NCBI GenBank assembly: GCA_035551835.1
Contig: DASZMN010000072.1
Coordinates: forward strand, 8,573 to 72,572
Direction of reading: 5' to 3'
Origin: Acidimicrobiales bacterium
GTDB taxonomy: Bacteria; Actinomycetota; Acidimicrobiia; Acidimicrobiales; RAAP-2
DNA: 64,000 nucleotides
The notes under the pieces were generated by a model, which was not told the DNA's origin, searched no databases, and saw only the letters and a program-made list of their open reading frames with translations. The position numbers and the translations under genes are program-made. Shown piece by piece: positions 12,588 to 62,631 of this stretch (position 1 is its first letter; every line of letters begins with the position of its first letter).

Positions 12588-12599
12588 GGACCCCCATCG

Positions 12600-13138: not shown

Positions 13139-13177
13139 GTCGTCGCCTCCCTGCCGGGTCGGACTGTTGCGTCGGAC

Positions 13178-13552
13178 CTACGCGATTTCGAAGATGGCGG
13201 TGACCTGTGCCATGTCGAAATAGTCCCGCCACGCACTGATCTTCCCGTCGACAACGTTGAACGCACCCATAACGGGAAGAGGGGCGGTCTTCCCCTTCAT
13301 GGTGAAGGTGTCGGTCCTCTCGGTGAGGACAGTGGAACCGTCCGTCGCCAGGTGGTGCACCTCGAACTCGAGGGCATCGCACATGCCCATGAACATGTTG
13401 ATCACCGCCATGGTCGCCTCGATACCCTCGGCGGGCTCCATCGGGATGTTGTGGTACACGATGTCGTCCGAGAAGAAGGAGCGCAGCGCCTCGGGGTCTC
13501 GGCTGCTTGCAGCGGTGCAGAAGTCACGGACAACCTGTTCGGCGCTGGGCAT
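13178..13552 (-). CDS. SnoaL/NTF2-like protein (limonene-1,2-epoxide hydrolase family)
   Basis: 124 aa starting at MPSAEQVVRDFCTAASSRDPEALRSFFSDDIVYHNIP. Only the last 124 codons of the 422-aa ORF look real. Confidence 0.7.
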   Translation of the reverse strand: MPSAEQVVRDFCTAASSRDPEALRSFFSDDIVYHNIPMEPAEGIEATMAVINMFMGMCDALEFEVHHLATDGSTVLTERTDTFTMKGKTAPLPVMGAFNVVDGKISAWRDYFDMAQVTAIFEIA

Positions 13553-18921: not shown

Positions 18922-19824
18922 GTGAGCTTCGCACTCCTGAACAAAGCGGGGAGACCAGATACCGACGTGAAGCGAGACCTTCTTGTTGGCGTGGCCCAGT
19001 GGCTGCCGACGCCGGGCGAGCGACGCCAAAACATGAACGTGGCGCTGGGAATGATCGAGGAGGCGGGCAAGCGCGGTGTCGAGCTCCTGGTGCTCCCGGA
19101 GCTGTGGTCCTGCGGCTACGACCCCGAGTCGCTGGGTCGCGACGCCCGGGCGGACGCCGAACCCCTGGACGGCCCACGGACGGAGCAGCTCTCGCAGGCG
19201 GCCAGCCGCCACGAGATGTGGCTGGCGGCCGGCAGCGTGCCCGAACGGGGCGACGACGGGCTGATTTACGACACGGCGCTCCTCTTCAACCAGCGGGGCA
19301 CACTCGTTGCCTGGCACCGCAAGGCGCACCTCTACCCGCCGACGCTCGAGCCGAACGTGTTCACCCCGGGAGACCGGCTCACGACGTACGACGACCCCAT
19401 TCTCGGGTGCATCGGGCTGGTGGTCTGCTTCGACGGGGACTTCCCCGAGGTCGCCCGTACCCTGGCCTTGCGAGGCGCCCGTCTCATCCTCGCCCCCTCG
19501 GCGTACGAGATCGAGGGGGCCAACGCATGGGACCTGCTGTACCCAGCGCTGGCCCTGACGAACAGCCAATGGTGGGTCCAGGCCAACCAGGCCGGGTCGC
19601 ACTCCACGTCGACGATGCTCGGGGCGAGCCGGATCGTGGCCCCCACGGGGACCGTGGTGGCCGAGGCGACCCGGGCCGTGCCGGGCTCCTCCAGCAAGGC
19701 GGAGCTCCTCGTTCACCGCATCGACCTCCACCTCGCGTACGCCAGGGACGGGATCTCGGGCCTGCTGGAAGAAGGGCGCCATCCCGACCTCTACTTCGAC
19801 CGGGAGCCGGCCAAGTCGAGGTAG
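18922..19824 (+). CDS. carbon-nitrogen hydrolase (nitrilase superfamily amidase)
   Basis: Glu in LVLPELW, Lys in WHRKAHLY, Cys in LVVCFDGDFPE. The start may be the GTG at 18967 (VKRDLLVGVAQ). Confidence 0.8.
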   Translation: MSFALLNKAGRPDTDVKRDLLVGVAQWLPTPGERRQNMNVALGMIEEAGKRGVELLVLPELWSCGYDPESLGRDARADAEPLDGPRTEQLSQAASRHEMWLAAGSVPERGDDGLIYDTALLFNQRGTLVAWHRKAHLYPPTLEPNVFTPGDRLTTYDDPILGCIGLVVCFDGDFPEVARTLALRGARLILAPSAYEIEGANAWDLLYPALALTNSQWWVQANQAGSHSTSTMLGASRIVAPTGTVVAEATRAVPGSSSKAELLVHRIDLHLAYARDGISGLLEEGRHPDLYFDREPAKSR

Positions 19825-21524
19825 GTCCTCCACCCGCCGAACTCGCTGATGTCGGGCGCTCCCTCGAGCGCGACCGGCTCGCAGAGGAAGCCCGGGACCG
19901 ATGTCCCGTCCTCGAGCAGCACCGTCCCGATCAACATCGGAGGCGGGACCGCGGCGACGAAATCGGCAAAGCGCGACGGAGCGAGGTCCCAGACCTCGAC
20001 TTCAATCGGCAGGCCGCCACCCGTGACGCGGACAAGTCCGGGTTTCGGGGGTTCGGTCGCCAGGGCGTGCAGCCGGTAGCAGGATGCAGTGCGGGTGACG
20101 CTGCGAAGCCGTGCCCCGCGCGACGTCAGCTGGTGGTGCAGCGGCTGTCCGCTGAGATGCGCACCCACGACGGCCAGCGACAGCGCGGGCGGCCGCAACC
20201 GCAGCGGGGAATGGTGCGGCGGAGGGGGCGACGACGAGTCCTCGAGCCGGGCCGCGATCTCGAGCTGGACGAGGTCGGTGAAGGCCGGGCCGATACAGCT
20301 GACCCCGAACGGTCGCCCTGCTGCCATCCCGGCCGGGACGGCGACGGCGCACATGTCGAGCAGATTGAGGAACGTCGTGAAATGACCCAGCCCGGCGTTC
20401 ACCCCGACCGGGTCGGCGGCGACCTCGGCCAACGTCGGGTGGCGCGTGGTCGTCGGTAGGAGCAAGGTGTCGGCGTCCACGCGGTCCCACTCGGCCTGGG
20501 CCTCGACCGCCAGCTGGGCCAACGTTTCCTGATCGGCCGCCAGCTCCACGGCGCGGATGCCCGCGGCGGTGCCGATGATGCGGCCGACGATCGCGTCCAC
20601 CTCGTGTGGGTGCGTCTCGACGAAGCGGCCCACCGCGGCGTACCGCTCGGCTACGAACGCGCCATCGTAGAGGAGGCCGCCGGCGCGCAGGAAGGGACCG
20701 AGATCGAGCGGACGGAGGACGCAGCCCGCTTCCACGAGCCTCGCTGTGGCGGCGCCGTACGCGTCCAGCCAATCCGTCGCCAGCACTCCGAGCACCTCGT
20801 CGCCGGGTACCGCGACCACCGCGGGTCTCCGGGGCGCGAGCGGCAGGTCGGACGGGAACGAGCGACGTCCCGGCGCCGCGCCGTGCGGACCCGTCAGCGC
20901 AGCCATCGCTTCCTCGCAACCGGCCACGTCGCGAGCGAAGACCGTCACGCAGTCGAAGGACCGACAGGCCGGCACGACCCCGACGGTCGAGACGAGACCC
21001 ACGGTCGCCTTGAACCCCACGACGCCGTTCAGGGCGGCGGGCACCCGGCCCGACCCGGCGGTGTCGGTACCCAAGGCAAGGTCGACCTCGCCCAGCGCGA
21101 CGGCCACGGCTGAGCCACTGCTGCTCCCGCCCGCGATCAGGTCGGGGTCCGAGGCACTGCGGACCGCGCCGTAGGGGCTGCGTGTCCCCACCAACCCGGT
21201 GGCGAACTGGTCCATGTTCGTCTTCCCGATGCACAGCGCCCCCGACTCCAGCAAGGCCCGAACCGCGGGCGCGTCGTGCACGGGCAGGTAGGAGAAGGCC
21301 GGGCAGCCCGCCGTGGTCGGAAGTCCCGCCACGTCGACGTTGTCCTTGACGGCGAACGTCAGCCCGGCAAGCGGGAGGTCCGCCGCCGAGCGCACCTTCG
21401 CGTCGATCCGGTCCGCCGCCACGAAGATGTCTGTCGGGTCGAAGCGGCTGATCCACGCCTCGGGGCGCGGGGAAGCTTCGATCGCAGCCAGAGCGCGCTC
21501 CGCCGCCTGCCGCGCGCTCGTCAT
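19791..21524 (-). CDS. atzF: allophanate hydrolase (amidase signature domain + AtzF-type C-terminal domain)
   Basis: FAVKDN, GGSSSGSAVAVA amidase signature and C-terminal AHLSGQPLHHQL...YRLHAL domain. The ATG at 21524 is preferred over 21569, which would overlap the carboxylase gene by 32 nt. Confidence 0.9.
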   Translation of the reverse strand: MTSARQAAERALAAIEASPRPEAWISRFDPTDIFVAADRIDAKVRSAADLPLAGLTFAVKDNVDVAGLPTTAGCPAFSYLPVHDAPAVRALLESGALCIGKTNMDQFATGLVGTRSPYGAVRSASDPDLIAGGSSSGSAVAVALGEVDLALGTDTAGSGRVPAALNGVVGFKATVGLVSTVGVVPACRSFDCVTVFARDVAGCEEAMAALTGPHGAAPGRRSFPSDLPLAPRRPAVVAVPGDEVLGVLATDWLDAYGAATARLVEAGCVLRPLDLGPFLRAGGLLYDGAFVAERYAAVGRFVETHPHEVDAIVGRIIGTAAGIRAVELAADQETLAQLAVEAQAEWDRVDADTLLLPTTTRHPTLAEVAADPVGVNAGLGHFTTFLNLLDMCAVAVPAGMAAGRPFGVSCIGPAFTDLVQLEIAARLEDSSSPPPPHHSPLRLRPPALSLAVVGAHLSGQPLHHQLTSRGARLRSVTRTASCYRLHALATEPPKPGLVRVTGGGLPIEVEVWDLAPSRFADFVAAVPPPMLIGTVLLEDGTSVPGFLCEPVALEGAPDISEFGGWRTYLDLAGSRSK

Positions 21525-21537
21525 GCGGCCCCACGCG

Positions 21538-24500
21538 TCACGCTGACTCCAAGACGACGAGCGGCGCACCGGCGGCCACCTGCGTGCCCGGCGTCACGAA
21601 GACCTCGACGACCGCGCCGTTGCAGGGCGAGACCACCGCGGTCTCCGTCTTCATCGCCTCAATGATCACCATGGCCTGGCCGGCGACCACCTGGTCCCCC
21701 GGCTGCACGCTGACCTTCCACACGTTTGACGTCATCGGGGCAGTGACAAGCGTGCCGTTGGCCGGGACCGCGACGCTCGGCAAATCCGGCGGGTCCAGCG
21801 CAGGCTCGTTACGGGGCTCGAATTCGCCGGCGGCCGCCCAGGCGGCGCGCTCGGCTGCGAACGCGGCCGCCTGACGCTCCTTGAAGACCGCGATGCTCGG
21901 TGCCTCCTGGCGCAGCATGTCCTCGTACTCGTGCAACCGGAACGTGCCGGGCTCGGTGCGCACCGGAAACCGCCCCCCGGCAAAGTCGGCGCGCGCGTCG
22001 AGCAGCTCGTCCGCCGTCACCGGGTACCAGTGGATGCGGTCGAAGAACCGCAACAGCCAGGGGACGCCGGGTTCGAACGGGTGATGCTGACGATGGCTGT
22101 TCCAGATCTGCAGTGTCCGCCCGACGAGCTGGTAGCCACCCGGGCTCTCCATGCCATAGATGCATAGGTAGGCCCCGCCGATCCCGACTGAGCTGTCCGC
22201 CGTCCAGGTCCGAGCAGGGTTGTACTTCGTCGTGACCAGGCGGTGGCGTGGGTCGATGGGTGTCGCCAACGGCGCGCCCAGGTACACGTCGCCAAGACCG
22301 AGTACGAGGTAGGTGGCGTCGAACACGGTGCGGCGGACGTCCTCTACGTCGTCGAGCCCGTTGATGCGCCGGATGAACTCGATGTTCCACGGGCACCACG
22401 GCGCGTCCTCCCGGACGCCCGCCGCGTAGCGGGCTGTGGCCTCGTGCGTCACCGGGTCGTCCCAGGACAGCGGGAGGTGGATGGCTCGGCTCGCCACCTC
22501 CAGTTCCTCGGAGCTCGGCAAAGTCTCCTCGAGCGCGCCCACCGCGTCGAGCATGTGCCGGAGCGACGTGGCGCGCGGGTCGAAGTGCACCTGCAAGGTG
22601 CGCACGCCCGGCGTCAGATCGACGATGCCCTCGAGACCGGCCGCGACGATCTGATCCGCCAGCACGTGGACCCGGGCCCGCATAGATAGGTCGAGTTCCA
22701 TCGCGCCGTATTCGACCAGCAGGTTGTCGTCCCCATTGGCCCGGTAGGTGACCGCGGGTGTTGCCCCGGCTGGCCGCCGGTCCAGGACGCCCGACAGGTC
22801 GGCGCCCTTGCCGTTGGCGGTGCACGTGAAGTTGGGCACGAAGCGGACGCGGTCGTCGGGCCGCAGCTGCCCGAGCTTCCAGCGTTCCGAGCTCAAGACC
22901 GTCGCCGGGCAGACGAATCCGCCGAGGCTCGGCCCGTCGGGTCCGAGCAGGATGGGGAGGTCGCCCGTGTAGTTCACCGCACCCACCGAGTACGGCGTGT
23001 CGTGGATGTTCGAGGGGTGGAGGCCGGCGTCGCCGCCGTCGTCCCGGGCCCAGCCCGGGCGCGGCCCGACGAGGCGCACGCCCGTCCGGGCCGAATTGAA
23101 ATGCACCTCCCAGGCCGTTGCGTAGAGCGCGTCCAGGTCCGCCGCTAGGAAGAATTCGGGGGCGGCATGGGGTCCTGGTACGACGCCGAGCTCCCAGTCC
23201 TGCGTGAAGTGCGGCCGCTCTGGCCTGATCCCGGGCGCCCGCACCCCCACGGGTTCTCCAGTCGCATGCAGCACGTCGCCGGCCCTCAGCGTGCGGCCAC
23301 CCAGGCCGCCGATGCCGCCCAGCGTGAAGGTCGCCGCGCTCCCGAGGTACTCGGGCAATTCGAGCGCGCCGGCCACGAGCACGTAGGCCCGGATGCCCGG
23401 AGGCCCGATCGACCCGACGTCGAGCGTGGAGCCAGCGGGCACCGTGACCGGCTCCCACATGGGCACGGCGACGCTGTCCACCTGCACCGCGGCAGGGGCG
23501 CCCGTCACGCAGACCACCGTGTCGACGGCGCAGTGCAGCGCCGGCCCGTCCAACGTCGCCTCCAAGCCGGCCGCACCCTCGGCGTTGCCCAGAGCGAGGT
23601 TGCCCCACCGGAACGACCAATCGTCCATTGGCCCCGAGGGCGGGACGCCGACGTCCCAGTAACCCTGCCGCCCGGGCCAGGCCTGCACTGTCGTCTGGGT
23701 GCCGGGCCGGACGACGTCGATCCGGTGCGAGTCGTACACCACGTCGAGCAGTGTCGCCGTGGTGTGGCGAGCCGACCGGAACTCCGCGTCCTGCAGAGCC
23801 TGCTCCACGAAGGCCAGAGAGGTCTCGATGCCGCCGATCGCGCTCTTGGCGAGCGCCGCCCCGAGCGCGTCGATGGCGCCGTCGCGATCCGGAGCGGTGG
23901 CGACGACCTTGGCCAACAAGGGGTCGTAGGCGGTTGAGATCTCCGTCCCCGCTTCGACCCAGCTGTCCACGCGCACCCCCGTCGGCCAATGGACGGACGT
24001 GATGAGTCCGGGGCTGGGCCGCCAGTCCCGTTCGGGGTCCTCGGCGTAGACCCGAGTCTCGATGGCCGCGCCAGCGGGCCTGGCCAGACGCGCCTCGTGC
24101 AGGGCACCGGGGTCGCCCGCGGCGACCCGCAGCATGATCTCGACCAGGTCGAGCCCGTACACCTGCTCGGTGACGGGGTGCTCCACCTGCAACCGAGTAT
24201 TCACCTCGAGGAACATCGCCTCGGACCTCTCGACGTCATAGAGGAATTCGACGGTGCCGGCGGACCGGTACCAGACCGAGCGGCAGAGGTCGGCGCTGGT
24301 CCGCGCCAGCATCTCGCGCACCGCGTCGGGAAGGTTGGGTGCGGGGGCCTCCTCGACCACCTTCTGGTTCCGACGCTGGAGTGTGCAGTCGCGGTCGCCC
24401 AACACGACGATGTCGCCGCCGCCGTCCCCCATCACCTGCACCTCGACGTGGCGCGCCCGCCGCACTCGACGCTCGAGGAAGACGCCGTCGTCGCCGAAGT

Positions 24501-25077
24501 TCGACCCCGCCAGGCGCGCCACCCGAGCGAAGACCTCGCGCAGCTCGTCCGGCCCGTCGCACGGCGAGATACCGATACCGCCACCGCCGCCCGTCGCCTT
24601 GAGCATGACCGGGTAGCCGATGCGCTCGGCCTCCTCACACGCGTGGTCGACGCTGGAGAGCAGCCCCGACCCGGGCACCAGCGGCACACCAGCCGCCGCC
24701 GCGGCGGCCCGCGCCTCGTGCTTGACGCCGAAGAGCTCGATCTGCGCCGGGGTGGGGCCGACGAAGACGAGTCCCGCCGCCTCGACGGCCCGGGCGAAGG
24801 CCGCGTGCTCGGATAAGAAGCCGTAGCCGGGGTGCACGCCCCACGCTCCCGTGGCAAGGGCGGCCTCAATGACAGCGTCCCCTCGCAGATAGCTCTCCCG
24901 GGCCGGAGCCGTTCCCAGCCGCACGGCCCGGTCGGCGTTGCGCACGTGCAGGGAGTCACGATCCGCGTCGGAAAAGACCGCGATGGTCTCGAGACCCAGG
25001 CGCTTCGCCGTCGCCATGATCCGCGCCGCGATCTCGCCCCGGTTGGCCACCAACAACGGTCCGACCTCGAGGTTCAT
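21538..25077 (-). CDS. urea carboxylase family enzyme (biotin carboxylase + KipA/KipI-like carboxyltransferase + biotinyl domain); possibly a guanidine carboxylase
   Basis: 1179 aa. N-terminus LVANRGEIA ATP-grasp biotin carboxylase, central allophanate-hydrolase-subunit-like domains, C-terminal biotinyl-lysine motif IEAMKTE. Its ATG overlaps the upstream stop (ATGA). Confidence 0.92.
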   Translation of the reverse strand: MNLEVGPLLVANRGEIAARIMATAKRLGLETIAVFSDADRDSLHVRNADRAVRLGTAPARESYLRGDAVIEAALATGAWGVHPGYGFLSEHAAFARAVEAAGLVFVGPTPAQIELFGVKHEARAAAAAAGVPLVPGSGLLSSVDHACEEAERIGYPVMLKATGGGGGIGISPCDGPDELREVFARVARLAGSNFGDDGVFLERRVRRARHVEVQVMGDGGGDIVVLGDRDCTLQRRNQKVVEEAPAPNLPDAVREMLARTSADLCRSVWYRSAGTVEFLYDVERSEAMFLEVNTRLQVEHPVTEQVYGLDLVEIMLRVAAGDPGALHEARLARPAGAAIETRVYAEDPERDWRPSPGLITSVHWPTGVRVDSWVEAGTEISTAYDPLLAKVVATAPDRDGAIDALGAALAKSAIGGIETSLAFVEQALQDAEFRSARHTTATLLDVVYDSHRIDVVRPGTQTTVQAWPGRQGYWDVGVPPSGPMDDWSFRWGNLALGNAEGAAGLEATLDGPALHCAVDTVVCVTGAPAAVQVDSVAVPMWEPVTVPAGSTLDVGSIGPPGIRAYVLVAGALELPEYLGSAATFTLGGIGGLGGRTLRAGDVLHATGEPVGVRAPGIRPERPHFTQDWELGVVPGPHAAPEFFLAADLDALYATAWEVHFNSARTGVRLVGPRPGWARDDGGDAGLHPSNIHDTPYSVGAVNYTGDLPILLGPDGPSLGGFVCPATVLSSERWKLGQLRPDDRVRFVPNFTCTANGKGADLSGVLDRRPAGATPAVTYRANGDDNLLVEYGAMELDLSMRARVHVLADQIVAAGLEGIVDLTPGVRTLQVHFDPRATSLRHMLDAVGALEETLPSSEELEVASRAIHLPLSWDDPVTHEATARYAAGVREDAPWCPWNIEFIRRINGLDDVEDVRRTVFDATYLVLGLGDVYLGAPLATPIDPRHRLVTTKYNPARTWTADSSVGIGGAYLCIYGMESPGGYQLVGRTLQIWNSHRQHHPFEPGVPWLLRFFDRIHWYPVTADELLDARADFAGGRFPVRTEPGTFRLHEYEDMLRQEAPSIAVFKERQAAAFAAERAAWAAAGEFEPRNEPALDPPDLPSVAVPANGTLVTAPMTSNVWKVSVQPGDQVVAGQAMVIIEAMKTETAVVSPCNGAVVEVFVTPGTQVAAGAPLVVLESA

Positions 25078-53937: not shown

Positions 53938-53966
53938 GCCGCACCGGCGCTCAGCGCCGGTGCGGC
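53938..53966. terminator. perfect 13-bp GC-rich hairpin (GCCGCACCGGCGC-tca-GCGCCGGTGCGGC) between convergent genes
   Basis: The loop tca is the stop codon (TGA) of the minus-strand hydrolase gene. There is no U-tract, so it would be an I-shaped, bidirectional terminator candidate. Confidence 0.5.
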
Positions 53967-54850
53967 TCCGAGTGGTCCCAGTCGGCCAGCAGCGTGCGCA
54001 GCGCCGTCAACAAGATGAGGGGCTGGTCGAGCATGGCGTGGTGGCCGGCCTCGGGGATCTCGATCACGGGCGTCACCCGGCCCAACTTCTCGTACATGAA
54101 GGCGCCGATCTCGGGCGTCACCAGGCCGCGCTCGGAGCGCAAGAGCGCCAGCCGGCAGTCGACCTGGCTCAGGTAGGGCACGGCCAGGCCGCGCACCCCG
54201 CGGGCGAACTGCTCGAAGATGCGGCGGTCGAACTTCCACTGCCACCCGCCGTCGACGTACCTGAGGGACTCCCGGGCCACGAAGTCGACGACGTAGTCGA
54301 GGTAGTGCTCCTGTGGCGGGACGGTGCGGAAGCGGGCCACGGCCGCGTCCAGCGTCGGATAGGTCCGGGGCCGCCCGAACGCATCGTGCGCGCTGATCTC
54401 GGGGTCGGCCTCGGTCACCGGCGAGTCGCACACGATCACCCCGGCCACCCGGTCGGAGTGGTGCGCCGCCGTGACGATCGTGATGAACCCGCCCATGGAG
54501 TGCCCGATCACGACGGGCACCCCGCCGATGCCGGCGTCGCCGGCGACGGCGATCACCTCCTCGGCCCACTGCTCGGGGTCGTAGTGGTCGCGGTGGCCGC
54601 TGTCGCCGTGGCCGGACAGGTCGATCGCCACCACCCGGAACTCGCCGGCGAACGTCGCCGCCACGTGGGTCCACCAGTGGGCGTGGGCGCCACCGCCGTG
54701 CACGAACACGAGCCCGCGGCGGCCGCGCTCGCCCCAGTCGAGGTAGTGCACCGGGCAACCGTCCACCACGACGGTGCCGTGGCCGTTCGGCACCGTCACG
54801 GCGCGGCTGAACCAGGCCGGCGCGTCCGGGAGGATCGGGGGGACCGTCAT
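53951..54850 (-). CDS. alpha/beta hydrolase
   Basis: VFVHGGGAHAHWW oxyanion region, nucleophile elbow GHSMGG, C-terminal EAGHH. Confidence 0.8.
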   Translation of the reverse strand: MTVPPILPDAPAWFSRAVTVPNGHGTVVVDGCPVHYLDWGERGRRGLVFVHGGGAHAHWWTHVAATFAGEFRVVAIDLSGHGDSGHRDHYDPEQWAEEVIAVAGDAGIGGVPVVIGHSMGGFITIVTAAHHSDRVAGVIVCDSPVTEADPEISAHDAFGRPRTYPTLDAAVARFRTVPPQEHYLDYVVDFVARESLRYVDGGWQWKFDRRIFEQFARGVRGLAVPYLSQVDCRLALLRSERGLVTPEIGAFMYEKLGRVTPVIEIPEAGHHAMLDQPLILLTALRTLLADWDHSEPHRR

Positions 54851-54884
54851 CGCAGGCGGATGCGACGTGGCCGGCCGGAGCCGG

Positions 54885-55079
54885 CTACTCGCTGATGATC
54901 TCGATGGCGTACTCGGGGCAGTTGGCGATGGCCAGACGGGCCTTGTCCTCGAGCTCGACCGGCACCTCGTCGACGATCACGGTCGACTGGCCGTAGTCGT
55001 CGACGTCGAAGAGCTCCGGCGCCAGGCCGTAGCAGCGGGCGTGTCCCTGGCACTTGTCGGGATCGACGCGGATCTTCAT
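54885..55079 (-). CDS. small ferredoxin (P450-associated, 3Fe-4S/4Fe-4S type)
   Basis: 64 aa: MKIRVDPDKCQGHARCY...ANCPEYAIEI. Its ATG overlaps the P450 stop (ATGA). Confidence 0.8.
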   Translation of the reverse strand: MKIRVDPDKCQGHARCYGLAPELFDVDDYGQSTVIVDEVPVELEDKARLAIANCPEYAIEIISE

Positions 55080-56293
55080 GGGAACACCACGGGCAGGATA
55101 CGGGGTCCCCGCACCTGGCCACCGGCCCACGTGATCTCCTGGCCCTCGGCGAGCGAGAACTCGGGGATGCGGGCGAGCCATTCCTCGAGCGCCACCTGCA
55201 GCTCCATGCGCGCCAGGTTGGACCCGGCACAACGGTGGATGCCCGAGCCGAAGGCGACGTGGCGGTTGTGGGCCCTGTCCAGCTGGACGACCTCGGGGTG
55301 CTCGAAGGCCTCGGGGTCGCGGTTGGCGGCCGGGAAGTTCATGAGCACCTTGTCGCCCTGCTTCATGGGGCAGCCGGCGTAGTCGATGTCCTGGGTCACC
55401 TCGCGGGCCATGGTCACCGGCGAGTAGGCCCGCAGCAGCTCCTCGACCGCGGTCGCCATGAGCTGGGGCTCGGCCACCAGCCGCTTGCGGTCCTCGTCGT
55501 GCGTGGCCAGGTGCCACAGCGACGAGCCGATGGCGCTCCACGTCGTGTCGACGCCGGCGATGAGCACGAGGGCCGCCATGCCCAGCACGATGCCGTCGTC
55601 GACCGGCTGGCCCTCCACCTCGGTGTGCAGCAGCTCGCTCAGCAGGTCGTCGCCCGGATTCTCCTTGCGGTAGGCCACCTGCTCGACGAAGTAGTAGAGC
55701 AGCCCGTCCGCGCCGCGTTGGCGGCGCTCCTGGTCGTCGGCGAACTCGAGGACGTCGCGCACCCACCCGGTGAACGTGTCGGCCAGGTCGGTCGAGACCC
55801 CGAGGATGCGGGCGATCACGCGGACGGGTATCTGCTGGGCATAGTCGGCCGCCGCGTCGGCGTGGCCTTTGTCCGCGAAGCCGTCGAGCAGCGCGCGGCA
55901 GAGGTCGCGCGTCAGCGGCACATAGGTGTCGACCCGGTTGTGCGAGAACCACGGCAACAGCAGGCGGCGCGTCCAGGTGTGCAGCGGCGGGTCGGCCGAA
56001 ATGGGCGGCAGGCCGTACTCGAGGTTCGGCCCGTCGAAGTTGGCGTTGGGGTCCTCGTCCTCGTCGCCGGGGATGACCGCCACCTTCAGCGAGCTGAAGT
56101 GCTCGATGTCGTGGGCGATCGCCGTCACATCGTCGTAGCGCAGCGGCATCCAGCTGCTCTTGCGGCGGCCGGTGTGCGGGATCGGACAGGTCTGGCGGAG
56201 CTCGTCCCAGATGCTGAACGGGTCGGCCAGGTACCTCGGGTCCATCACGTCGAAGTCCGCCGCCCAGTCGGTGACCGGCGCCGTGTGTGTCAT
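55076..56293 (-). CDS. cytochrome P450
   Basis: Heme-binding loop FGSGIHRCAGSNLA, ExxR in VEELLRAY, I-helix AGVDTT. SD AAGGGGG. Confidence 0.92.
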   Translation of the reverse strand: MTHTAPVTDWAADFDVMDPRYLADPFSIWDELRQTCPIPHTGRRKSSWMPLRYDDVTAIAHDIEHFSSLKVAVIPGDEDEDPNANFDGPNLEYGLPPISADPPLHTWTRRLLLPWFSHNRVDTYVPLTRDLCRALLDGFADKGHADAAADYAQQIPVRVIARILGVSTDLADTFTGWVRDVLEFADDQERRQRGADGLLYYFVEQVAYRKENPGDDLLSELLHTEVEGQPVDDGIVLGMAALVLIAGVDTTWSAIGSSLWHLATHDEDRKRLVAEPQLMATAVEELLRAYSPVTMAREVTQDIDYAGCPMKQGDKVLMNFPAANRDPEAFEHPEVVQLDRAHNRHVAFGSGIHRCAGSNLARMELQVALEEWLARIPEFSLAEGQEITWAGGQVRGPRILPVVFP

Positions 56294-56368
56294 CGGGAGC
56301 CCCCTTGTGGTGCGCGTGCCCGGCGCGGTCGTCGCCGGCGTTGCGGTGGTGTGCTCTGCCCGCCCCGG

Positions 56369-57205
56369 TCACACTACCGGCTGCCCGCCCCGCAGCACCT
56401 CGTACTGGCGGTCCGCGTCGTCGGCTGGCACCCGCAGGGCGGCGCCGGTGGGCTGGGGCCGGACCACCACGGCCCCGCTGGGCGCGAACTGCACGATGTA
56501 GGCCTTGCGCACCCCTTCGGTGCGGTTGGGGCCCGTCGAGTGCGGGGTGAGCGACGAGAAGACGACGATGCTGCCCGCGGCCACGGGAACGGGCACGGCG
56601 TCGGCGGGGTCGCGCAGGCAGACGAAGCCGATGTCGGAGTAGTCGTGGGCCAAGGTTCCGAGGCGGTGCAGGCGGGGCACCACCCACGGGCAGCCGTTCT
56701 CCTCGGTGGCGTCGGTCAACGCGACCCAACAGGTCAGGTACTGCTGCGGCTCGACGAACGCGTAGCCGTTGTCCTGGTGCCAGGGGAAGGGCGACTCGGT
56801 GCCCGGCTTCTTGTACACGGCTTGGTCCCAATAGAGGCGGACGTCGGGCCCGATCAGGTCGGCGCACACGCCGGCGAGGAGCGCGGCACAGGTGAAGCGG
56901 CGCAGCCGGGGCGAGCGCGCCACCAGGTGCGTGGTGAACGTGATCTCGTCGGCCCGGGCGATGAAGAAGCGGCCGCCCTCCATCTCGCGCAGCGCCTCTT
57001 CCTGGCGCGCCTCGAACGGGTCGATCTCGGCGACCAGCTCGTCGACGGCGGCGGGCTCCAGCGCGTCTTCGAGCACGAAGTAGCCGAGCTCGTCGTACTG
57101 CCGCACCTGTTCGGGCGCCACGACGCGGAAGGGGCCCGCGTGATCGCGCCACTCGAACGCCGTGTTCAGCGCGTGACGCGGCGGGGCGCCGGCGCCGGCG
57201 CTCAT
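56369..57205 (-). CDS. phytanoyl-CoA dioxygenase (PhyH) family Fe(II)/2-oxoglutarate oxygenase
   Basis: PWHQDNGY (HxD) and SSLTPHSTGPNRT (distal His, Arg). ATGA overlap with the crotonase stop. Confidence 0.8.
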   Translation of the reverse strand: MSAGAGAPPRHALNTAFEWRDHAGPFRVVAPEQVRQYDELGYFVLEDALEPAAVDELVAEIDPFEARQEEALREMEGGRFFIARADEITFTTHLVARSPRLRRFTCAALLAGVCADLIGPDVRLYWDQAVYKKPGTESPFPWHQDNGYAFVEPQQYLTCWVALTDATEENGCPWVVPRLHRLGTLAHDYSDIGFVCLRDPADAVPVPVAAGSIVVFSSLTPHSTGPNRTEGVRKAYIVQFAPSGAVVVRPQPTGAALRVPADDADRQYEVLRGGQPVV

Positions 57206-57963
57206 GTCCCGGTGAACCGCGGGGCGCGACGCTCCGCGGTGGCCCGCACGCCCTCGGCGAAGTCGGCGGTGGACTGCAGGCGGAGCTGTTGCGCGCACTC
57301 CTGCTCCATGGCGACGCGCGTCGCCTCGACCAAGCCGAGGCGCAGGGTGGCCCTGATGGCGCGCACGGCGAGCGGGCCCGAGCCGGCCAACTCGCCGGCA
57401 TAGGCGAGGGCGTCGGTCATGAGGTCGCCCTCGGCGTCGCCGGCCAGGCGGTCGCACAGGCCGAGGGCGAAGGCTTCCTCGCCACCCACCCGGCGCCCGG
57501 TGAGCAACAGGTCGGCGGCGGCCTGGCGCCCGACGACGGCCGGCAGCGTGACGGTCAGAGCGAAGCCGTGGTGGAAGCCGAGGCGGGCGAAGTTCGCGCT
57601 GAAGCGGCTCGCCGTGCTGGCCACGCGGAAGTCCGCCGACAACGCGAGCCCGAAGCCACCGCCGATGGCGGCGCCTTGGACCGCGGCGACGACCGGGAGC
57701 GGCGCCGCGAAGAGCCGCAAGGCCTGCCGGTAGAGCTCGGCGATGTCCTGTCCCGCGTTGGCGCCGAAGTCGAGACCGGCACAGAAGTGCCGGCCTTCCG
57801 CCGCCAGCACGATGGCGCGGCACCAGCCGGTGCGGTCGAGCTCCTCGTAGGCGTCGGCGACCTCGGCCAGCAGTGCCGTGTCGAAGAAGTTGTTGGGCGG
57901 CCGGCCCAGGCGGACCACGCCGACGTGCTCGCCGTGCTGTTCGACCGAGACGTCGTCGGTCAC
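57202..57963 (-). CDS. enoyl-CoA hydratase/isomerase (crotonase) family
   Basis: GRHFCAGLDF and AAIGGGFGLALSAD oxyanion-hole motifs. GTG start overlaps the GNAT stop. Confidence 0.88.
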   Translation of the reverse strand: MTDDVSVEQHGEHVGVVRLGRPPNNFFDTALLAEVADAYEELDRTGWCRAIVLAAEGRHFCAGLDFGANAGQDIAELYRQALRLFAAPLPVVAAVQGAAIGGGFGLALSADFRVASTASRFSANFARLGFHHGFALTVTLPAVVGRQAAADLLLTGRRVGGEEAFALGLCDRLAGDAEGDLMTDALAYAGELAGSGPLAVRAIRATLRLGLVEATRVAMEQECAQQLRLQSTADFAEGVRATAERRAPRFTGT

Positions 57964-58427
57964 AGCGGGACGTCCTCGAGGCTGCGCCAGTAGATCAGCG
58001 CGTCCTCACCGTCGACGGCGCGGGGGATCCGGCCCACCTCGGTGAAGCCGAGTCGGCGGTACATGGCGCGGGCGGGGTTGGACTCGAAGACGAGGTTGAA
58101 CTGGATGGCGTCGAAGCCGAGGCGGCGTGCTTCGAGCAGCGAGTGCTCGACCAGGCTCCGCCCGACGCCGGTCCCGCGGTAGGCGGACAGCACGAAGTAG
58201 CCGGCGTTGGCGATGTGGGCCGCCCGTCCGACGAAATTCGGCTTGATGTAGTACGCGCCGACCAGATGGTTCCCGAATTTCGCCACCGAGACGGTGGCGG
58301 AGTGATCGACCCAGTAGTCGTCGAACTCGTCCCGGGTGATCGGCGCCGACTGCGGGAACCCGTCGCCGGCGCTCACGATGCGGCCGAACGCGGCGAACAG
58401 CTCGTCGTAGTCATCGACCGTGGCCAT
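57960..58427 (-). CDS. GNAT family N-acetyltransferase
   Basis: YRGTGVGRSLVEHSL (Q/RxxGxG/A acetyl-CoA loop) and NPARAMYRRLGF. Start likely MATVDDYDE (58427); the ORF extends to 58478. Confidence 0.8.
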   Translation of the reverse strand: MATVDDYDELFAAFGRIVSAGDGFPQSAPITRDEFDDYWVDHSATVSVAKFGNHLVGAYYIKPNFVGRAAHIANAGYFVLSAYRGTGVGRSLVEHSLLEARRLGFDAIQFNLVFESNPARAMYRRLGFTEVGRIPRAVDGEDALIYWRSLEDVPL

Positions 58428-58521
58428 GTTGATGGAGACCGGCACGAGACCCACGGTACTGGCGCGGAGCGCGCGCACCGGGCCAACACAGGCATGACAC
58501 AGCCGCCGCGCCGGGCGCGCG

Positions 58522-59349
58522 TCAGTGCGCGGCGAACCCCGTCGTCCCGATGCCGGGACGCACGGCCTCGATGGGATCGCGCAGGTCGTCGATGTAACCC
58601 AGTGCGTACGCCCCGCGGTCGTAGCCCATCAGCCGCAGGAGGTCGACCGGCAGCGTCTCGGCCACCTCGCGCGGCACCGAGAGGTACTGGTTCTCCTCCT
58701 GGCGCAGCCAGGCCACGACGTAGGTGATGTTGAGCCCGATCCGGGTGGCGGCGGAGTCGTTGGCGCCGCCGCCGTGGTACACGCTGCCCGAATAGAAGAG
58801 CGCCGAGCCCCGTGGCATCTCGGCGGGCTCGGTGTCGCCAGGGCCGAAGGAGAGGCGGTCTTCCTGGGCGTTGCTCCCGAGCACGACCCGGGTTGCGCCG
58901 TTTTCCTCGGTGAAGTCCGTCAGCGCCCAGATGGTGTTGCACTGGACCTCGTAGCCGGCCGGGAACGGGAAGAAGTCGAACGCCCACTGGTCGCGGTGGA
59001 TCGGCTGGGCCGTCTCGCCCGATCCGATGGCGATGGCCTGGGTCAGGTGGAGCTGAATGTTGGTCGCATGGCCCAGGAACGCCCGCGCCGCGCCCACGGC
59101 CAGCGGATGCATGACCAGGTCACGGCACGCGGGCGAGCGGGCGATGAGTGACCCGGTGCGGCGGGTCAGTTGGCCACTGAAGTCGTCCGGCCCGGTCGGC
59201 GTGGTGTCGAGGAAGGGGCGCAGCTCCGACTCGATCCGTTCGAGCAACGCTGCGTCGGCCGCGCCCTCGACGATGACCGCACCGTCGCGGCCCACGACGG
59301 CCGCCACCTCGTCGGGGCCGGCGTCGGCGCGCAGGCGGGAGATGGGCAC
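58522..59349 (-). CDS. phytanoyl-CoA dioxygenase (PhyH) family Fe(II)/2-oxoglutarate oxygenase, second copy
   Basis: QPIHRDQW (HxD), GSVYHGGGAN (distal His), TRIGLNI (Arg). Starts 5 nt after the PqqD-like stop. Confidence 0.8.
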   Translation of the reverse strand: MPISRLRADAGPDEVAAVVGRDGAVIVEGAADAALLERIESELRPFLDTTPTGPDDFSGQLTRRTGSLIARSPACRDLVMHPLAVGAARAFLGHATNIQLHLTQAIAIGSGETAQPIHRDQWAFDFFPFPAGYEVQCNTIWALTDFTEENGATRVVLGSNAQEDRLSFGPGDTEPAEMPRGSALFYSGSVYHGGGANDSAATRIGLNITYVVAWLRQEENQYLSVPREVAETLPVDLLRLMGYDRGAYALGYIDDLRDPIEAVRPGIGTTGFAAH

Positions 59350-59354
59350 GCCGG

Positions 59355-59684
59355 CTAACCGGGTGCCGCCGGAGACGCCGGCGCCGCCGGCGCCGCCGGT
59401 CCCTCGGACACCAGGCCCATGTCGGCCAGCTTGCGCAGCGTCTCACGCACGTCGTCGCCGATGACCGACGCCTCCTCGGGGTACGTCTCGCCCAACGCCC
59501 CGACGATCTCGTCCACGGTGGTGGAGCCGTCACAGAGCTTCCATACCGACCCGGCGCTCGAATTGAGCAGGATAAGGAGCTGGCCCACGTCGTCGTAGAC
59601 GGCGACGTTCTCGTCCAGCTCGACCGCCGTGGCGCCCTCCCGGCGCACCGGCACCAAACCCGCTTCCGGCCACTCAGCGTCCAT
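59355..59684 (-). CDS. PqqD-family protein (RiPP recognition element-like peptide chaperone)
   Basis: From ATG 59684 (GAGGAG 6 nt upstream): VELDENVAVYDDVGQLLILLNSSAGSVWKLCDGSTTVDEIVGALGETYPEEASVIGDDVRETLRKLADMGLV, the canonical PqqD pattern. Confidence 0.8.
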   Translation of the reverse strand: MDAEWPEAGLVPVRREGATAVELDENVAVYDDVGQLLILLNSSAGSVWKLCDGSTTVDEIVGALGETYPEEASVIGDDVRETLRKLADMGLVSEGPAAPAAPASPAAPG

Positions 59685-59716
59685 GCCCGCTCCTCTGCTG
59701 TCCCACGATGTCCGTC

Positions 59717-59760
59717 TCGACCCTGGCTCGACCCTGGCTCGACCCTGGCTCAACCCTGGC
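59717..59760. repeat. 11-bp tandem repeat TCGACCCTGGC x4 (last copy TCAACCCTGGC) abutting the kinase stop codon
   Basis: Exact head-to-tail copies at 59717, 59728, 59739 and 59750. The unit length is not a multiple of 3. It lies in the 75-nt gap between the HprK-like and PqqD-like genes. Confidence 0.9.
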
Positions 59761-60680
59761 TATACCCGGGCGGCCACGAGCCCGAGCACCAGTCTGCACG
59801 CCTCGTCGAGGTCGGACAGGGTGAGGGTGTAGCACGCGCAGCCCGCGGCCAGCCGGCCCAGGGCCTCGGTACCGGACGCGCCGTGGGGCAACAGGTTCAC
59901 CGCGTGGAGGGCCAGCGTGAAGAAGGCCTCCGTCTCGCTCAGCCGCGTGAGCGTCGTCTCGGCGGCCGGGTCGTAGTGGGGGACGATCACAAAACCCGGT
60001 CCGCACGGGTCCCCGACCCGGCGCCCGGCGCGCTCGCCCACCGGGACCAGCCATTCGCCGCCGGGCTCGCCTTCGCCGCCTTCGCCGCCATCCTCGCCGT
60101 ACCACCCGTCGCCGAGCGGACCTGGGTCCATCTCGGCCAACACGGCGAAGCTGCCCGGCTTGACCGTGATCGGCTTGGGGTACGCCAGGAGCCGCCCCGG
60201 TCCCGCGCCGTCGAGCTCGAGCGCGACGAGCTCGTCGCTCAGGTACCCGAGCCCCGCCCGCGACAGCCCCGCCGTGAGCGTCGACTTGCCCGACCCCGAG
60301 GCCGCGGGCACCAGGATCCCGATGCCGTCCGCCTCGAGCCCGCCGGCGTGGAAGAGCAGGTGCTGACCGCTCTGCTCGGCGGCCAGGCGGTTGACGTCCC
60401 ACACCAGCCACCCCACCGCGTCGCCCGGCGCCAGCCCCGCCTTCACGAGCTCCCCGTCGCGGCCGACGTCGACGACGACGACGTGGCGTCCACGCGACAC
60501 CGTCAGCGAGTAACGGTGGATCGCCGGTGCACCATCTGCCGGGTCAGAGGGGTCGCGCAGCGACGCCAGCAGCGCATCGATGTGGGCAGCGAGCGACGGG
60601 TCGTCGCAACAGACCGCGAAGCGGTACGAGAGTGCCTTCAGGTTGGGGGTGCAATGCGCCCGGTCGTGCGCGTGCGCCAC
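59760..60680 (-). CDS. HprK-related serine kinase-like P-loop protein
   Basis: LFHAGGLEADGIGILVPAASGSGKSTLTAGLSRAGLGYLSDELVAL matches the HPr-kinase C-terminal P-loop region as found in RiPP-associated HprK-related kinases. Confidence 0.75.
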   Translation of the reverse strand: MAHAHDRAHCTPNLKALSYRFAVCCDDPSLAAHIDALLASLRDPSDPADGAPAIHRYSLTVSRGRHVVVVDVGRDGELVKAGLAPGDAVGWLVWDVNRLAAEQSGQHLLFHAGGLEADGIGILVPAASGSGKSTLTAGLSRAGLGYLSDELVALELDGAGPGRLLAYPKPITVKPGSFAVLAEMDPGPLGDGWYGEDGGEGGEGEPGGEWLVPVGERAGRRVGDPCGPGFVIVPHYDPAAETTLTRLSETEAFFTLALHAVNLLPHGASGTEALGRLAAGCACYTLTLSDLDEACRLVLGLVAARV

Positions 60681-60683
60681 GGA

Positions 60684-61166
60684 CTAACTGGGTTGGTCCG
60701 GGCTCCCCGCCTCGTGCACCACGGGCGCGGGCTTGGGTGCCCGGCTGGCCCAGTGGTGCATCGCCCAACCGCCGGCGATGAGCGCCGCGCCGATTTCGGC
60801 GTCGCGCTGGATGTTGAGGCCGGTCTGGGCCAGTGACCCGCCGGCGCCGGCCGCAGCCGGTGTGGTCGCGGCGGTGAGGTTGGCGTTCGTCCCGCCCGTC
60901 CCGCCCGCTCCCGTGCCCCCGGTGTTCGACGGAGTCGTCGTCGGCTTGCCGGTCGTGTTGCCGCCGCCCCCGCTGTTGCCGGACAACGTGGCCCCGGCCG
61001 CCGGCTTGGCCGTCAGGATCTCGGGGACGACCCAGGCCGCCGCACCGGCGGTGGCCACGGCGGACATCCGACCGAGGGCCTGGCGCCTCGAAAACGTGCG
61101 CCCTGAGCCCGCGCTCGGTGCAACCGGAGATGCCCCCACATCTCGATTTGACCGTTCCCTCGTCAT
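60684..61166 (-). CDS. Tat-signal, Gly/Thr-rich, LAxTG-type sortase-anchored surface protein lacking any globular domain
   Basis: SRRQALGRMSAVATAGAAAWVV (twin-arginine signal), about 50 aa of G/T/N/A low complexity, then LAQTG + hydrophobic IGAALIAGGWAMHHWA + SRAPK. High GC3. Confidence 0.6.
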   Translation of the reverse strand: MTRERSNRDVGASPVAPSAGSGRTFSRRQALGRMSAVATAGAAAWVVPEILTAKPAAGATLSGNSGGGGNTTGKPTTTPSNTGGTGAGGTGGTNANLTAATTPAAAGAGGSLAQTGLNIQRDAEIGAALIAGGWAMHHWASRAPKPAPVVHEAGSPDQPS

Positions 61167-61494
61167 ATCGTCCGTCCGTTCCTCAAGTTATGGGGGGAGA
61201 CTTTACTGCTGTTCTCCCACCTAGACCGCACATTTTCGCCTGTTTTTCGGCAACCCCGACTGCCCACACCGAGAGCCGCCTGACCTCCAGTGCCTAGATA
61301 ACGCCCGATCCGACCGTTTACTACCGCTTCACCCTCAGTGAATTGTGCAATGGTTGTGACATATTCTCGGTCACCCCGGCCGATGGCCGGGCCCCGGGGC
61401 GCTCCCAGGGCCATCCCCGACCCCCTCGCCCGACCCGCGCCCGGACCCATCCGCCCTGCACTCACGGGGGCTACCCGGACGGCATGATGAGCGG

Positions 61495-62631
61495 ATGAGG
61501 GGAGAGGGGGGGGCAGCCACCGAAGAGGCGATCGAGCCGACGGCACTCCTGCTCTGGGAGGCCTGCCGCCCGGATCCCGCTGCGGCCGGGGTGCGGCGGG
61601 CCCTGGCCGGTGGCGCCGACCTCGGCCTCGCCGTCACCGCCGCCAACGAACACCGGATCAGCCCGTTGCTGTGGCGCGCGCTCGGGGTGGCCGACGCGCT
61701 GGACGCGCTGGGTCCCGAGCGGGCCGCGTTGCACGGGACGGCGGACGCCTTCGCCATGGAGGCCCTCCTACTCATCCCGCGCGCCGTCGCCCTCGCGGTC
61801 CGCCCGCTCACCGACGTCGGGCTGGAGCCGGTGATCTTCAAGGGCCCCGCCGTGGCCGCCCGCTACCCCCGACCCGGCCTGCGCCCCATGGAGGACATCG
61901 ACGTGCTGCTTCCCCGCGTCGACCATGCCCGCGCCCTCGAGGCGCTCGGCGGGTCCGGATGGCGGGTCGTTCGGGCGGCCGGGGGCGAGCAGTACGACAC
62001 GGTCCTCGCCCACGACGAGGTGCCGTCCTTGTTCCTCGAGCTCCACTTCGGGCTCGAGTCGGCGTCGCAACGCGTGACCGCGCTCGACCCCGAGACGCTC
62101 TGGGCGCACCGTCAGCCGGCCGAGATCGCCGGCACCCCCGCCTTCGTGCTCCCGCAAAACGAAGAGCTGGTGGTGCTCGCCGCGCACGCGGGGAAACCCC
62201 ACCACGGCTTCGCCCGGCTGGTGTGGATTGCCGACCTCGCCATGATCGTGCGCGCCGCCGAGGCCGACGGCAACCCGGTCGACTGGGCGCGGGTGCACGC
62301 GGTCGCCCGGTCCACCCACTGCGTGACGGTGGTCGGCGCCGCCCTCGCCATGGCGCGGCGGGCCGGCGTCGAGGTGCCACCGGAGCTCTTCCCCCTCCCC
62401 ACCCGGGGCTGGCGCGGTGAGGCCATGGCCCGGCTCCTGTCGGTGACGTGGCCCCTCACGCACCTCGAACTGCCGGGCTACCAGCTCAACTACGCCCTCG
62501 CCGACGACCGCGCGCAGCGCGTCAAGATCCTGCTTGTGCTGCTTGCCTCCGGATACGGCATCGGTGCGCGCGTCCGGCGGGTGGCGGCACTGCCGCGACG
62601 GGCGCGCACCGGGACCCGGTCCGCGAGCTGA
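61495..62631 (+). CDS. NTP_transf_5 (uncharacterised nucleotidyltransferase) family protein
   Basis: IFKGPAVAARYPRPGLRPMEDIDVLLPRVDHARALEALGGSGW is the hallmark KG...Y...R...DIDLL motif of this family. Divergent from the LAxTG-kinase-PqqD array. Confidence 0.75.
   Translation: MRGEGGAATEEAIEPTALLLWEACRPDPAAAGVRRALAGGADLGLAVTAANEHRISPLLWRALGVADALDALGPERAALHGTADAFAMEALLLIPRAVALAVRPLTDVGLEPVIFKGPAVAARYPRPGLRPMEDIDVLLPRVDHARALEALGGSGWRVVRAAGGEQYDTVLAHDEVPSLFLELHFGLESASQRVTALDPETLWAHRQPAEIAGTPAFVLPQNEELVVLAAHAGKPHHGFARLVWIADLAMIVRAAEADGNPVDWARVHAVARSTHCVTVVGAALAMARRAGVEVPPELFPLPTRGWRGEAMARLLSVTWPLTHLELPGYQLNYALADDRAQRVKILLVLLASGYGIGARVRRVAALPRRARTGTRSAS

Follow-up and report, generated by a model that had tools for sequence, protein, structure and literature searches.

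We examined a 64,000-nt stretch of high-GC DNA (~0.7) from an Acidimicrobiales bacterium (contig DASZMN010000072.1 of assembly GCA_035551835.1), referred to below as the window, whose nearest relatives are metagenome-assembled genomes of Acidimicrobiales/Acidimicrobiaceae. Our subject is a module of four genes, encoding an NTP_transf_5 nucleotidyltransferase-fold enzyme (NTP5), a Gly/Thr-rich protein that we treat as a predicted precursor, an HprK-like kinase and a discrete RRE of the PqqD family. A preliminary description of this DNA had reported a cluster of the PqqD, kinase and divergent NTP_transf_5 genes, and matches to the corresponding protein families bear this out. The precursor, kinase and PqqD genes follow one another on the minus strand almost without gaps, in a run that continues into a PhyH gene (58522-59349), and the NTP_transf_5 gene is divergent to this operon across a 328-bp spacer. 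The module map covers the following four genes:

59355..59684 (open reading frame to 59753), minus strand: discrete RRE (PqqD family), 109 aa from the likely true start ATG at 59684; PF05402, E = 4.7e-14
59760..60680, minus strand: HprK-like P-loop kinase, counterpart of LppK/PadeK/PsmK; TIGR04352 HprK_rel_A, E = 2.3e-35, 122 bits
60684..61166, minus strand: predicted precursor, 160 aa, made up of a leader/putative twin-arginine translocation (Tat) signal, a 52-aa Gly/Thr-rich core, LAQTG, a membrane helix and a basic residue; GC at third codon positions 0.86
61495..62631, plus strand: NTP_transf_5 nucleotidyltransferase-fold enzyme, counterpart of LppN/PsmN, divergent; PF14907, E = 1e-37

The RRE fold, which the preliminary description had proposed to confirm, was recovered both by the PF05402 match and by structure prediction. 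An AlphaFold2 (AF2) model built from a 34-sequence alignment (pLDDT 76) has the topology b1-b2-b3-b4-a1-a2-a3-b5, the order described for LppB and PbaB1. Its best Foldseek match in the PDB was the lasso RRE TbiB1 bound to its leader (E = 6e-5, TM 0.78-0.80, root-mean-square deviation 2.4 A), with further matches to the PbtF RRE, PqqD and the B1-leader complex 6jx3; the nearest structures are lasso B1 proteins that were solved with YxxPxL leaders. At the level of sequence, the RRE profile reached PqqD, TbiB1 and LppB (9x8z_B) weakly (E = 0.088 for LppB).

For the kinase we found 404 homologues. Its P-loop, GSGKST (60279-60296), and the DE that follows are invariant in 22 homologues. Against the PDB, the kinase profile aligned with the P-loop region of HprK/P, weakly (E = 0.27), and the Foldseek matches of its AF2 model (pLDDT 58) to PEPCK and HprK/P, at TM 0.2-0.4, are suggestive at most. 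One homologue, P0061 (411 aa, from a 389-kb contig), is an apparent fusion of the kinase with a PqqD/RRE domain, consistent with the two acting as one unit. NTP5 carries a KG motif (61837-61851) and D134-x-D136 (61894-61908). The KG, the R...DxD with D134 and D136, two His and one Asp are invariant in comparison with homologues from Planctomycetota, Thiobacillus and other actinobacteria; a sequence search of the PDB with NTP5 gave no match.

The adjacent protein as predicted precursor

According to the preliminary description, the trio was an orphan without a recognisable precursor. We find, however, that the gene next to the kinase carries a leader motif of the type known from lasso peptides and from linear polyphosphorylated peptides (LPPs): W45VVPEI50, at 61017-61034, within W45-V-V-P-E-I-L51, which matches the [Y/W]xxPx[L/V/I] motif bound by lasso-type RREs (PMC13381572). 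When the region from 58.4 to 62.8 kb was scanned for RRE-type motifs, only WVVPEI, apart from one more inside NTP5, fell in a coding frame that is credible. Judged from its sequence, the Gly/Thr-rich protein is the predicted precursor of the module, and the cluster is not an orphan. Its features are:

60990..61100, minus strand: leader doubling as a Tat-type signal peptide by its sequence, residues 23-59, with R27R28 at 61083-61088, an h-region, WVVPEI and A57-G-A59
60981..60983, minus strand: Ser62, the predicted phospho-acceptor, at +3 after the predicted A59|T60 cleavage and 17 residues past W45, invariant in 47/47
60819..60833, minus strand: LAQTG, a class E sortase-type sorting motif, with L112, T115 and G116 invariant in 47 members
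60741..60794, minus strand: hydrophobic segment IGAALIAGGWAMHHWA then S-R, either a sorting-signal membrane helix with a basic stop or a tail anchor

Searches returned 468 homologues of the precursor; among the 120 listed, none is assigned a Pfam domain. We aligned 49 copies taken from loci and, separately, 47 database members that include the most divergent ones; the architecture is constant across these 47. The N-terminus begins with a variable stretch; then come S-R27-R28-Q-A-x-G, an uncharged segment of Ala/Gly/Val, W45-V-V-P48-E-I-L51-T-A-K-P-A-A-G-A59 and T/A-L-S62-G, in which R27, R28, W45, P48, L51, A53, P55 and S62 are invariant among the 47 members. The leader displays the hallmarks of a Tat-type signal peptide, namely SRRQALG, an h-region, K54 in the c-region and the A57-G-A59 site, an AxA site at the expected distance from the h-region. 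The TIGR01409 TAT_signal_seq model matches 16 of the 47 members (best E = 3.4e-4) and formate_TAT matches 10/47. In 58 copies, the codons of SRRQALGR have accumulated 73, 10 and 171 substitutions at codon positions 1, 2 and 3, respectively, which shows that the twin-arginine codons are translated and under purifying selection. Public annotation often begins the precursor at an internal Met34 (9626-9997 in locus L080; P0121 and P0122), giving proteins of 123-126 aa that have lost the RR motif; the signal peptide is therefore hidden in such entries.

By analogy with the LPP precursor LppA, Ser62 would be the phospho-acceptor. The middle of the protein, which in the window copy comprises 52 residues of G (16), T (13), A, N, S and P, varies freely between species in both length and sequence. 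The C-terminal part opens with L112-A-x-T115-G116; after eight polar residues it continues with I-G-A-A-L-I-A-G-G-W-A-M-H-H-W-A-S-R142 and closes with a tail that varies. All 49 locus copies (49/49) have LA[x][T/S]G, as LAFTG in 34 and otherwise with M, S, Y, Q or K at x; distant members have LAATG, LAETG or LANTG, and one has LPFTG. Within the hydrophobic segment G126, G133, W134, W139, S141 and R142 are invariant, a conservation above that usual in a generic sorting-signal helix. A lasso-style Thr at leader position -2 was also considered as a conserved feature and was dropped, with Thr in only ~60% of copies. A search of 1.84 billion representatives with the 54-aa leader of the window protein returned only 57 proteins (cluster representatives), and the divergent matches that were read all have the Gly/Ser/Thr-rich LAxTG architecture, with no new types of cargo.

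Conservation, mobility and surroundings of the module

Loci surrounding kinase homologues were taken from one genome of each species, 79 in all, and the window proteins were mapped onto each; linkage counts rest on the 60 closest loci, nearly all of them from Acidimicrobiaceae or Acidimicrobiales. The arrangement NTP5(-)|precursor(+)-kinase-PqqD is intact in 55/60, and the precursor lies directly upstream of the kinase in 57/60. The preliminary description had made its case depend on conserved linkage of the trio to sortase substrates in other genomes, and linkage of this kind, to the LAxTG gene, is what the 55 of 60 species loci display. Most of the 60 are syntenic relatives over more than 10 kb, and the exceptional loci are therefore the informative cases. 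One locus (L012) has two complete tandem copies of the four-gene unit, and the genome OY970336 also has two copies. An extra NTP5-precursor pair is found in L019 and L047, and an extra precursor in L017, L031 and L044. In L018 the NTP5-precursor pair has been relocated together, 4-6 kb away among other genes. The four genes are intact in different surroundings in L016 and L021, beside thrS, HIT and LPG-synthase-like genes, and in L039, beside genes for GH5, FUSC, CtaA and a UbiA-family prenyltransferase. In silico, the linkage, the joint duplication, the RRE-type motif and the invariant Ser at the LPP position support the suggestion, made in the preliminary description, that the enzymes may act on the adjacent LAxTG protein.

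The four module proteins have diverged more quickly than the metabolic enzymes that flank them in the same loci (L001-L060), typically to 50-70% identity as against 75-90%; in L027, for example, they are 54-67% identical, versus 77-87% for the flanks. The only close locus with kinase and RRE genes that lacks both precursor and NTP5 within 10 kb is L043 (10001-11264); its partners may lie elsewhere in the genome, or the system may be decaying.

Beyond the closest loci, kinase and RRE paralogues adjoin Tat-signal proteins in two other actinomycetotal loci, L062 and L068, the former also containing NTP5. Their leaders contain VWVAPVIDSF (twice, in L062) and AWTTPIIAS (L068), which have the same W-x-x-P-x-I stretch as the window precursor, an AxA-type site at the same distance and a Ser one to four residues further on. 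The mature parts are unrelated: one protein is Cys-rich and has 138 aa, another has 198 aa, and a third contains a choice-of-anchor C domain. A conserved leader joined to variable cargo is the signature of leader-guided modification. L062 (4540-13252, from another Acidimicrobiales lineage) encodes two divergent kinase paralogues, three PqqD-like proteins, NTP5 and two Tat proteins; its module adjoins a chain-length-determinant/ParA-like gene and a large open reading frame (12068-13252), a neighbourhood that may point to a connection with polysaccharide synthesis like that of LPPs in Bacilli. L068 (9977-16285) has three kinase paralogues and a PqqD that is joined to a thioredoxin-like domain; it also encodes a beta-helix protein with a Tat signal and the Tat choice-of-anchor C protein.

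Thiobacillus and relatives (L063-L078, at ~8800-11800) carry canonical cassettes of the kind that NCBIfam names the 'HPr-rel-A system', located between prmC and grxD. Immediately upstream of the Thiobacillus PqqD-kinase-NTP5 genes is a gene for a ~200-aa protein with a Tat-like N-terminus, SRRKL...TLASRPVLA, and thereafter a conserved SAAASGN(L/M)S.HG stretch. This protein has no matching model in Pfam or NCBIfam. L063 has a second kinase-NTP5 pair. In the trios of Planctomycetota (L071), no obvious Tat protein was seen adjacent to the enzymes.

We also read the surroundings of the module for lasso, export and anchoring genes. The preliminary description had stated that both flanks lie inside the window; on the right, however, only 1.4 kb beyond NTP5 is inside, and this flank had to be read further in a relative, L080, whose proteins are 80-94% identical. 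Its report that a lasso cyclase, B2 protease and exporter are missing nearby agrees with what we found. Of the ten largest open reading frames tested in the window (463-1179 aa), none encodes an Asn-synthase-type cyclase; their products are urea carboxylase, allophanate hydrolase, acyl-CoA ligase, glutamine synthetase, amidohydrolases and similar. Precomputed Pfam assignments within 10 kb on either side in L080 include no Asn_synthase, transglutaminase-type B2 protein, MsbA-type exporter, S26/S24 peptidase or sortase; this region holds a branched-chain amino-acid ABC importer, cysteine dioxygenase, rhodanese, MDMPI, AHSA1, ArsR, MFS, TetR, SDR and FMO genes. Neither a SipW-like signal peptidase nor an MsbA-like exporter was found among the open reading frames of the window, and those tested in three alternative contexts include no cyclase, B2 protease, SipW-like peptidase (LppS) or MsbA-like exporter (LppD). 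A scan of the window and the 79 loci for the sortase TLxTC motif returned spurious short open reading frames only.

The remaining feature of the module and its immediate neighbours are as follows:

61167..61494, no strand assigned: divergent intergenic region between NTP5 and the precursor operon; GC 0.66, lower than its surroundings

Direct reading of the sequence reveals a GAGGA Shine-Dalgarno-like site ~12-16 nt ahead of the precursor ATG (61166), and a scan of the intergenic region for consensus promoters and terminators gave no match. Downstream of the RRE gene (53951-59349, minus strand) lie genes for PhyH, GNAT, enoyl-CoA hydratase, a second PhyH, P450, ferredoxin and an alpha/beta hydrolase. 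This run is kept in most Acidimicrobiaceae loci at 75-94% identity and looks like a separate oxidative pathway. The first PhyH dioxygenase gene is 3' of the RRE gene in most loci, on the opposite side of the module in L036 and L055, and absent from L016, L039, L051 and the first L012 copy; it might be an accessory of the module, since it still adjoins the module where it has switched sides. Elsewhere in the window (19791-25077, minus strand), urea carboxylase (1179 aa) and allophanate hydrolase (592 aa) genes adjoin as an ordinary urea amidolyase pair, which is unrelated to the finding.

Relation to published systems

LPPs are linear polyphosphorylated peptides made by clusters in Bacillota (Popov et al., Nat Commun 2026, PMC13381572). 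Their core genes encode the RRE LppB, the HprK-like kinase LppK, the NTP transferase LppN, the SipW-like signal peptidase LppS and the MsbA-like exporter LppD, and their precursors, of 35-200 aa, share the leader consensus YxxPxVLxHQxIxFETxxS. The LPP RRE binds the [Y/W]xxP motif exactly like lasso B1 proteins; a Trp in place of the Tyr marks paeninodin-type leaders, with W at -15. LppK adds several phosphates to core Ser3 of LppA, 18 residues past the motif Tyr, and LppS cleaves after T-1 only when the leader is presented by LppB. Both LPPs and paeninodins were stated to be restricted to Bacillota (all PMC13381572).

The window module resembles this system in many respects. It has an RRE of the PqqD/lasso-B1 type, an HprK-like kinase with an intact P-loop and a PF14907 NTP transferase with an intact DxD, and its 160-aa precursor falls inside the 35-200 aa range, combining a conserved leader with a variable Gly/Thr core. 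W45-V-V-P-E-I-L fits [Y/W]xxPx[V/I]L, the [V/I]-L after the proline being common to both, and the spacing from the aromatic residue to the Ser is 17 in the window precursor compared with 18 in LppA. If signal peptidase I cuts the window precursor after A57-G-A59, this Ser would likewise be residue 3 after leader cleavage. Both systems lack a macrolactam cyclase, and in both the leader is removed by a signal-peptidase-type activity, as predicted in the case of the window precursor. The differences are equally plain. The window module is from Acidimicrobiia, whereas LPPs were described as Bacillota-only, and it has no counterpart of the core genes LppS and LppD. Its leader contains an invariant twin-arginine motif and a hydrophobic h-region, has Trp rather than the LPP Tyr as motif residue and lacks the remaining LPP consensus, HQxIxFET. 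At its C-terminal end the precursor has LAxTG, with a membrane helix and a basic residue behind it. The module lies outside a capsule locus, and its NTP5 gene is divergently transcribed.

The same three protein families make up the tailoring set of paeninodin and pseudomycoidin (PadeK/PsmK and PsmN; PMC6993621). The leaders of these lasso peptides are of the WxxPxL type, and in PbaA the Trp is at -15 from the cleavage site, as predicted for W45. There, a Ser is phosphorylated and a hexose is then added onto the phosphate: in pseudomycoidin, PsmN attaches one hexose or two to the phospho-serine and depends for this on D134/D136, the DxD of the NTP transferase (PMC6993621). The window system differs in having no lasso cyclase or B2 protease, in an invariant Ser beside the leader where the lasso acceptor Ser is C-terminal, and in a product that is predicted to be linear and probably wall-anchored. 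The trio had been taken in the preliminary description for an accessory set of lasso clusters. Such use is indeed known, but it is no longer the only one, as the trio is the core of the LPP family (PMC13381572) and a related cassette is found in Proteobacteria. The idea that a modification of this kind would be a new use of RREs has likewise been overtaken, because a paper of 2026 already describes how non-lasso precursors, 35-200 aa long, are phosphorylated in an RRE-dependent manner (PMC13381572); the window system is therefore a variant and not a first. Nor does a contrast between surface protein and small peptide apply, given that the product expected after signal-peptide and sortase cleavage, of ~56 aa, would be peptide-sized and not a folded protein. 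What would be new here is a system of LPP-like kind outside Bacillota, the fusion of its leader with a Tat signal and the surface location of its product.

Class E sortases recognise LAXTG (PMC5148588). With their substrates, for example chaplins (PMC5148588), the window protein shares LAxTG, the hydrophobic segment, the basic residue and an actinobacterial lineage. It differs in its longer acidic tail, its unusually conserved helix, its lack of a match to LPXTG models, a signal that is Tat-type by sequence and not Sec-type, and the lack of a folded passenger domain. In the 'HPr-rel-A system' of NCBIfam (TIGR04352, kinase A; TIGR04353, PqqD family peptide chaperone), which is mainly proteobacterial, a kinase, a PqqD protein and NTP_transf_5 again form a cassette. 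Its gene order, PqqD-kinase-NTP5, is all colinear, unlike that of the window. In the proteobacterial proteins the W-x-x-P spacing is missing from the leader, and a Cys-containing domain with no LAxTG forms the cargo. Further, the Thiobacillus L074 PqqD scores 58.9 bits against a TIGR04353 cutoff of 35, whereas the window RRE has no match to this model. A functional analogy, and only that, is offered by the Tat signal-peptide-binding chaperones of TorD/DmsD type ('REMPs'), which have an all-helical TorD fold and act in a maturation that consists of cofactor insertion. As proposed for the RRE, a small cytoplasmic protein holds the twin-arginine signal peptide until cytoplasmic maturation ends; the fold (all-helical versus winged-helix) and the chemistry (cofactor insertion versus phosphorylation) are different. 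In the literature on HprK-related kinase A, on PF14907 and on RREs combined with twin-arginine signals, we found no description of the present arrangement.

Proposed mechanism, alternatives and implications

We consider it probable that the four genes constitute a self-contained LPP-like system for RRE-dependent modification of the precursor, in which the leader is the Tat signal and the product becomes anchored by a sortase. On the best reading, its relatives are the LPP clusters found in Bacillota and, among lasso peptides, the kinase/NTP-transferase tailoring set of the paeninodin type. The 160-aa precursor would be made in the cytoplasm, where the RRE would bind W45-V-V-P-E-I-L51 at the end of the twin-arginine signal peptide; we infer this binding from the identity of the motif and from the RRE fold. 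The RRE would then present the precursor to the HprK-like kinase, which, if it acts as LppK does on Ser3 of LppA, would phosphorylate Ser62, possibly several times, and NTP_transf_5 may elaborate the phosphate, for example with a hexose as PsmN does. The modified precursor would leave via Tat, and general signal peptidase I would cut after A57-G-A59, making Ser62 residue 3 of the mature chain. A dedicated peptidase or ABC exporter would not be needed, because the leader itself would be the export signal. A housekeeping class E sortase would then cut LAQT|G and link the ~56-aa Gly/Thr-rich chain to peptidoglycan, so placed that the distal N-terminus of the wall-linked chain would display a phospho(glyco)-serine. 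We take Tat export and sortase anchoring as likely. The data show directly which genes these are, that the module is conserved and mobile, which motifs are invariant and what fold the RRE has; the chemical and trafficking steps are proposals.

Several observations weigh against this proposal, and some of them lend themselves to other explanations. The same enzymes and substrate could be served by different trafficking, with the C-terminal segment acting as a Tat-inserted tail anchor or as a tag for another sorting enzyme, or with the N-terminus being an RRE leader only, cut by an unlinked peptidase. In Pfam and NCBIfam scans, LPXTG-anchor models matched no precursor member and TAT_signal models did not match the window copy. 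The hydrophobic GGWAMHHWASR is almost invariant, unlike ordinary sorting-signal helices, and behind the basic residue comes a variable, acidic tail of 15-25 aa, longer than in classic sorting signals. One copy, in L048, lacks LAxTG and keeps the helix, and the loci taken around kinase homologues show no gene for a sortase, a signal peptidase or Tat. Even so, the L, T and G of LAxTG are invariant in the 47 aligned members, one member has LPFTG, the RR pair is invariant and selectively maintained, TAT_signal_seq recognises a third of these relatives (16/47), and the AxA site is as far from the h-region as would be expected. We therefore regard different trafficking as unlikely, while granting it a modest chance.

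The assignment of the substrate is a separate matter. The Gly/Thr-rich gene could be a mere conserved neighbour, with the enzymes acting on a small peptide from an unlinked gene, on some other protein or on a substrate that is not a peptide. Adjacency could simply be inherited in a set of mostly syntenic loci, and the 55/60 count partly reflects shared ancestry; L043 retains kinase and RRE genes with no precursor or NTP5 nearby, and the planctomycetotal trios have no obvious Tat protein beside them. The leader is nearly invariant, and therefore offers no measurable covariation with the RRE. Set against this, the four genes have been duplicated and moved together, into different contexts, the protein holds the only RRE-type motif of the region outside the enzyme genes together with an invariant Ser at the spacing of the LPP acceptor, and unrelated Tat proteins with the same leader adjoin distant kinase/RRE sets, so that a bystander role strikes us as distinctly improbable. 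Nor do we see much reason to view the trio as a trans-acting tailoring set for a lasso peptide cluster elsewhere in the genome. The RRE model is nearest to lasso B1 proteins, as such a role would suggest, but a lasso set would bring its own B1, neither the 10 kb on either side in L080 nor the open reading frames tested in three alternative contexts provide a cyclase or B2 protease, the protein encoded in cis has the cognate leader motif, and LPPs are a precedent for a trio that functions without a cyclase. This possibility is very slight.

Other points that count against an LPP-like system concern the enzymes themselves. The kinase scores 122 bits against a TIGR04352 cutoff of 200 bits, the window RRE has no TIGR04353 match at E<=0.01, and lasso PqqD models are not above threshold. 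LppN was inactive in the sole reconstitution of an LPP, and the chemistry of the NTP transferase is therefore uncertain.

Taking the proposed system one step further, we suggest, as plausible rather than probable, that the RRE reads a motif inside the Tat signal and serves as a proofreading chaperone, coupling phospho(glyco)sylation of the Ser at +3 to Tat export, and that the outcome is a sortase-anchored, 'proteophosphoglycan-like' stalk on the wall. Such a mechanism could represent a widespread and hitherto unrecognised class of RRE-dependent modification of exported proteins, because Tat-type proteins adjoin kinase/RRE genes in other Actinomycetota and in the canonical HPr-rel-A cassettes of Proteobacteria. 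It would also hint that LPPs and paeninodins, which have no known function, act at the cell surface or capsule.

If the proposed reading is true, the signal peptide of this protein is a natural example of one that doubles as an enzyme-recruiting leader. Until now, RRE-dependent chemistry has been regarded as confined to small secreted natural products. The module would extend the LPP enzyme set to Acidimicrobiia and, more loosely, to Proteobacteria, and would show general machinery (Tat, signal peptidase I and sortase) taking the place of a dedicated peptidase and exporter. By giving the product an address, the cell wall, the module would turn the purpose of phosphorylated peptides into a testable question of surface decoration.

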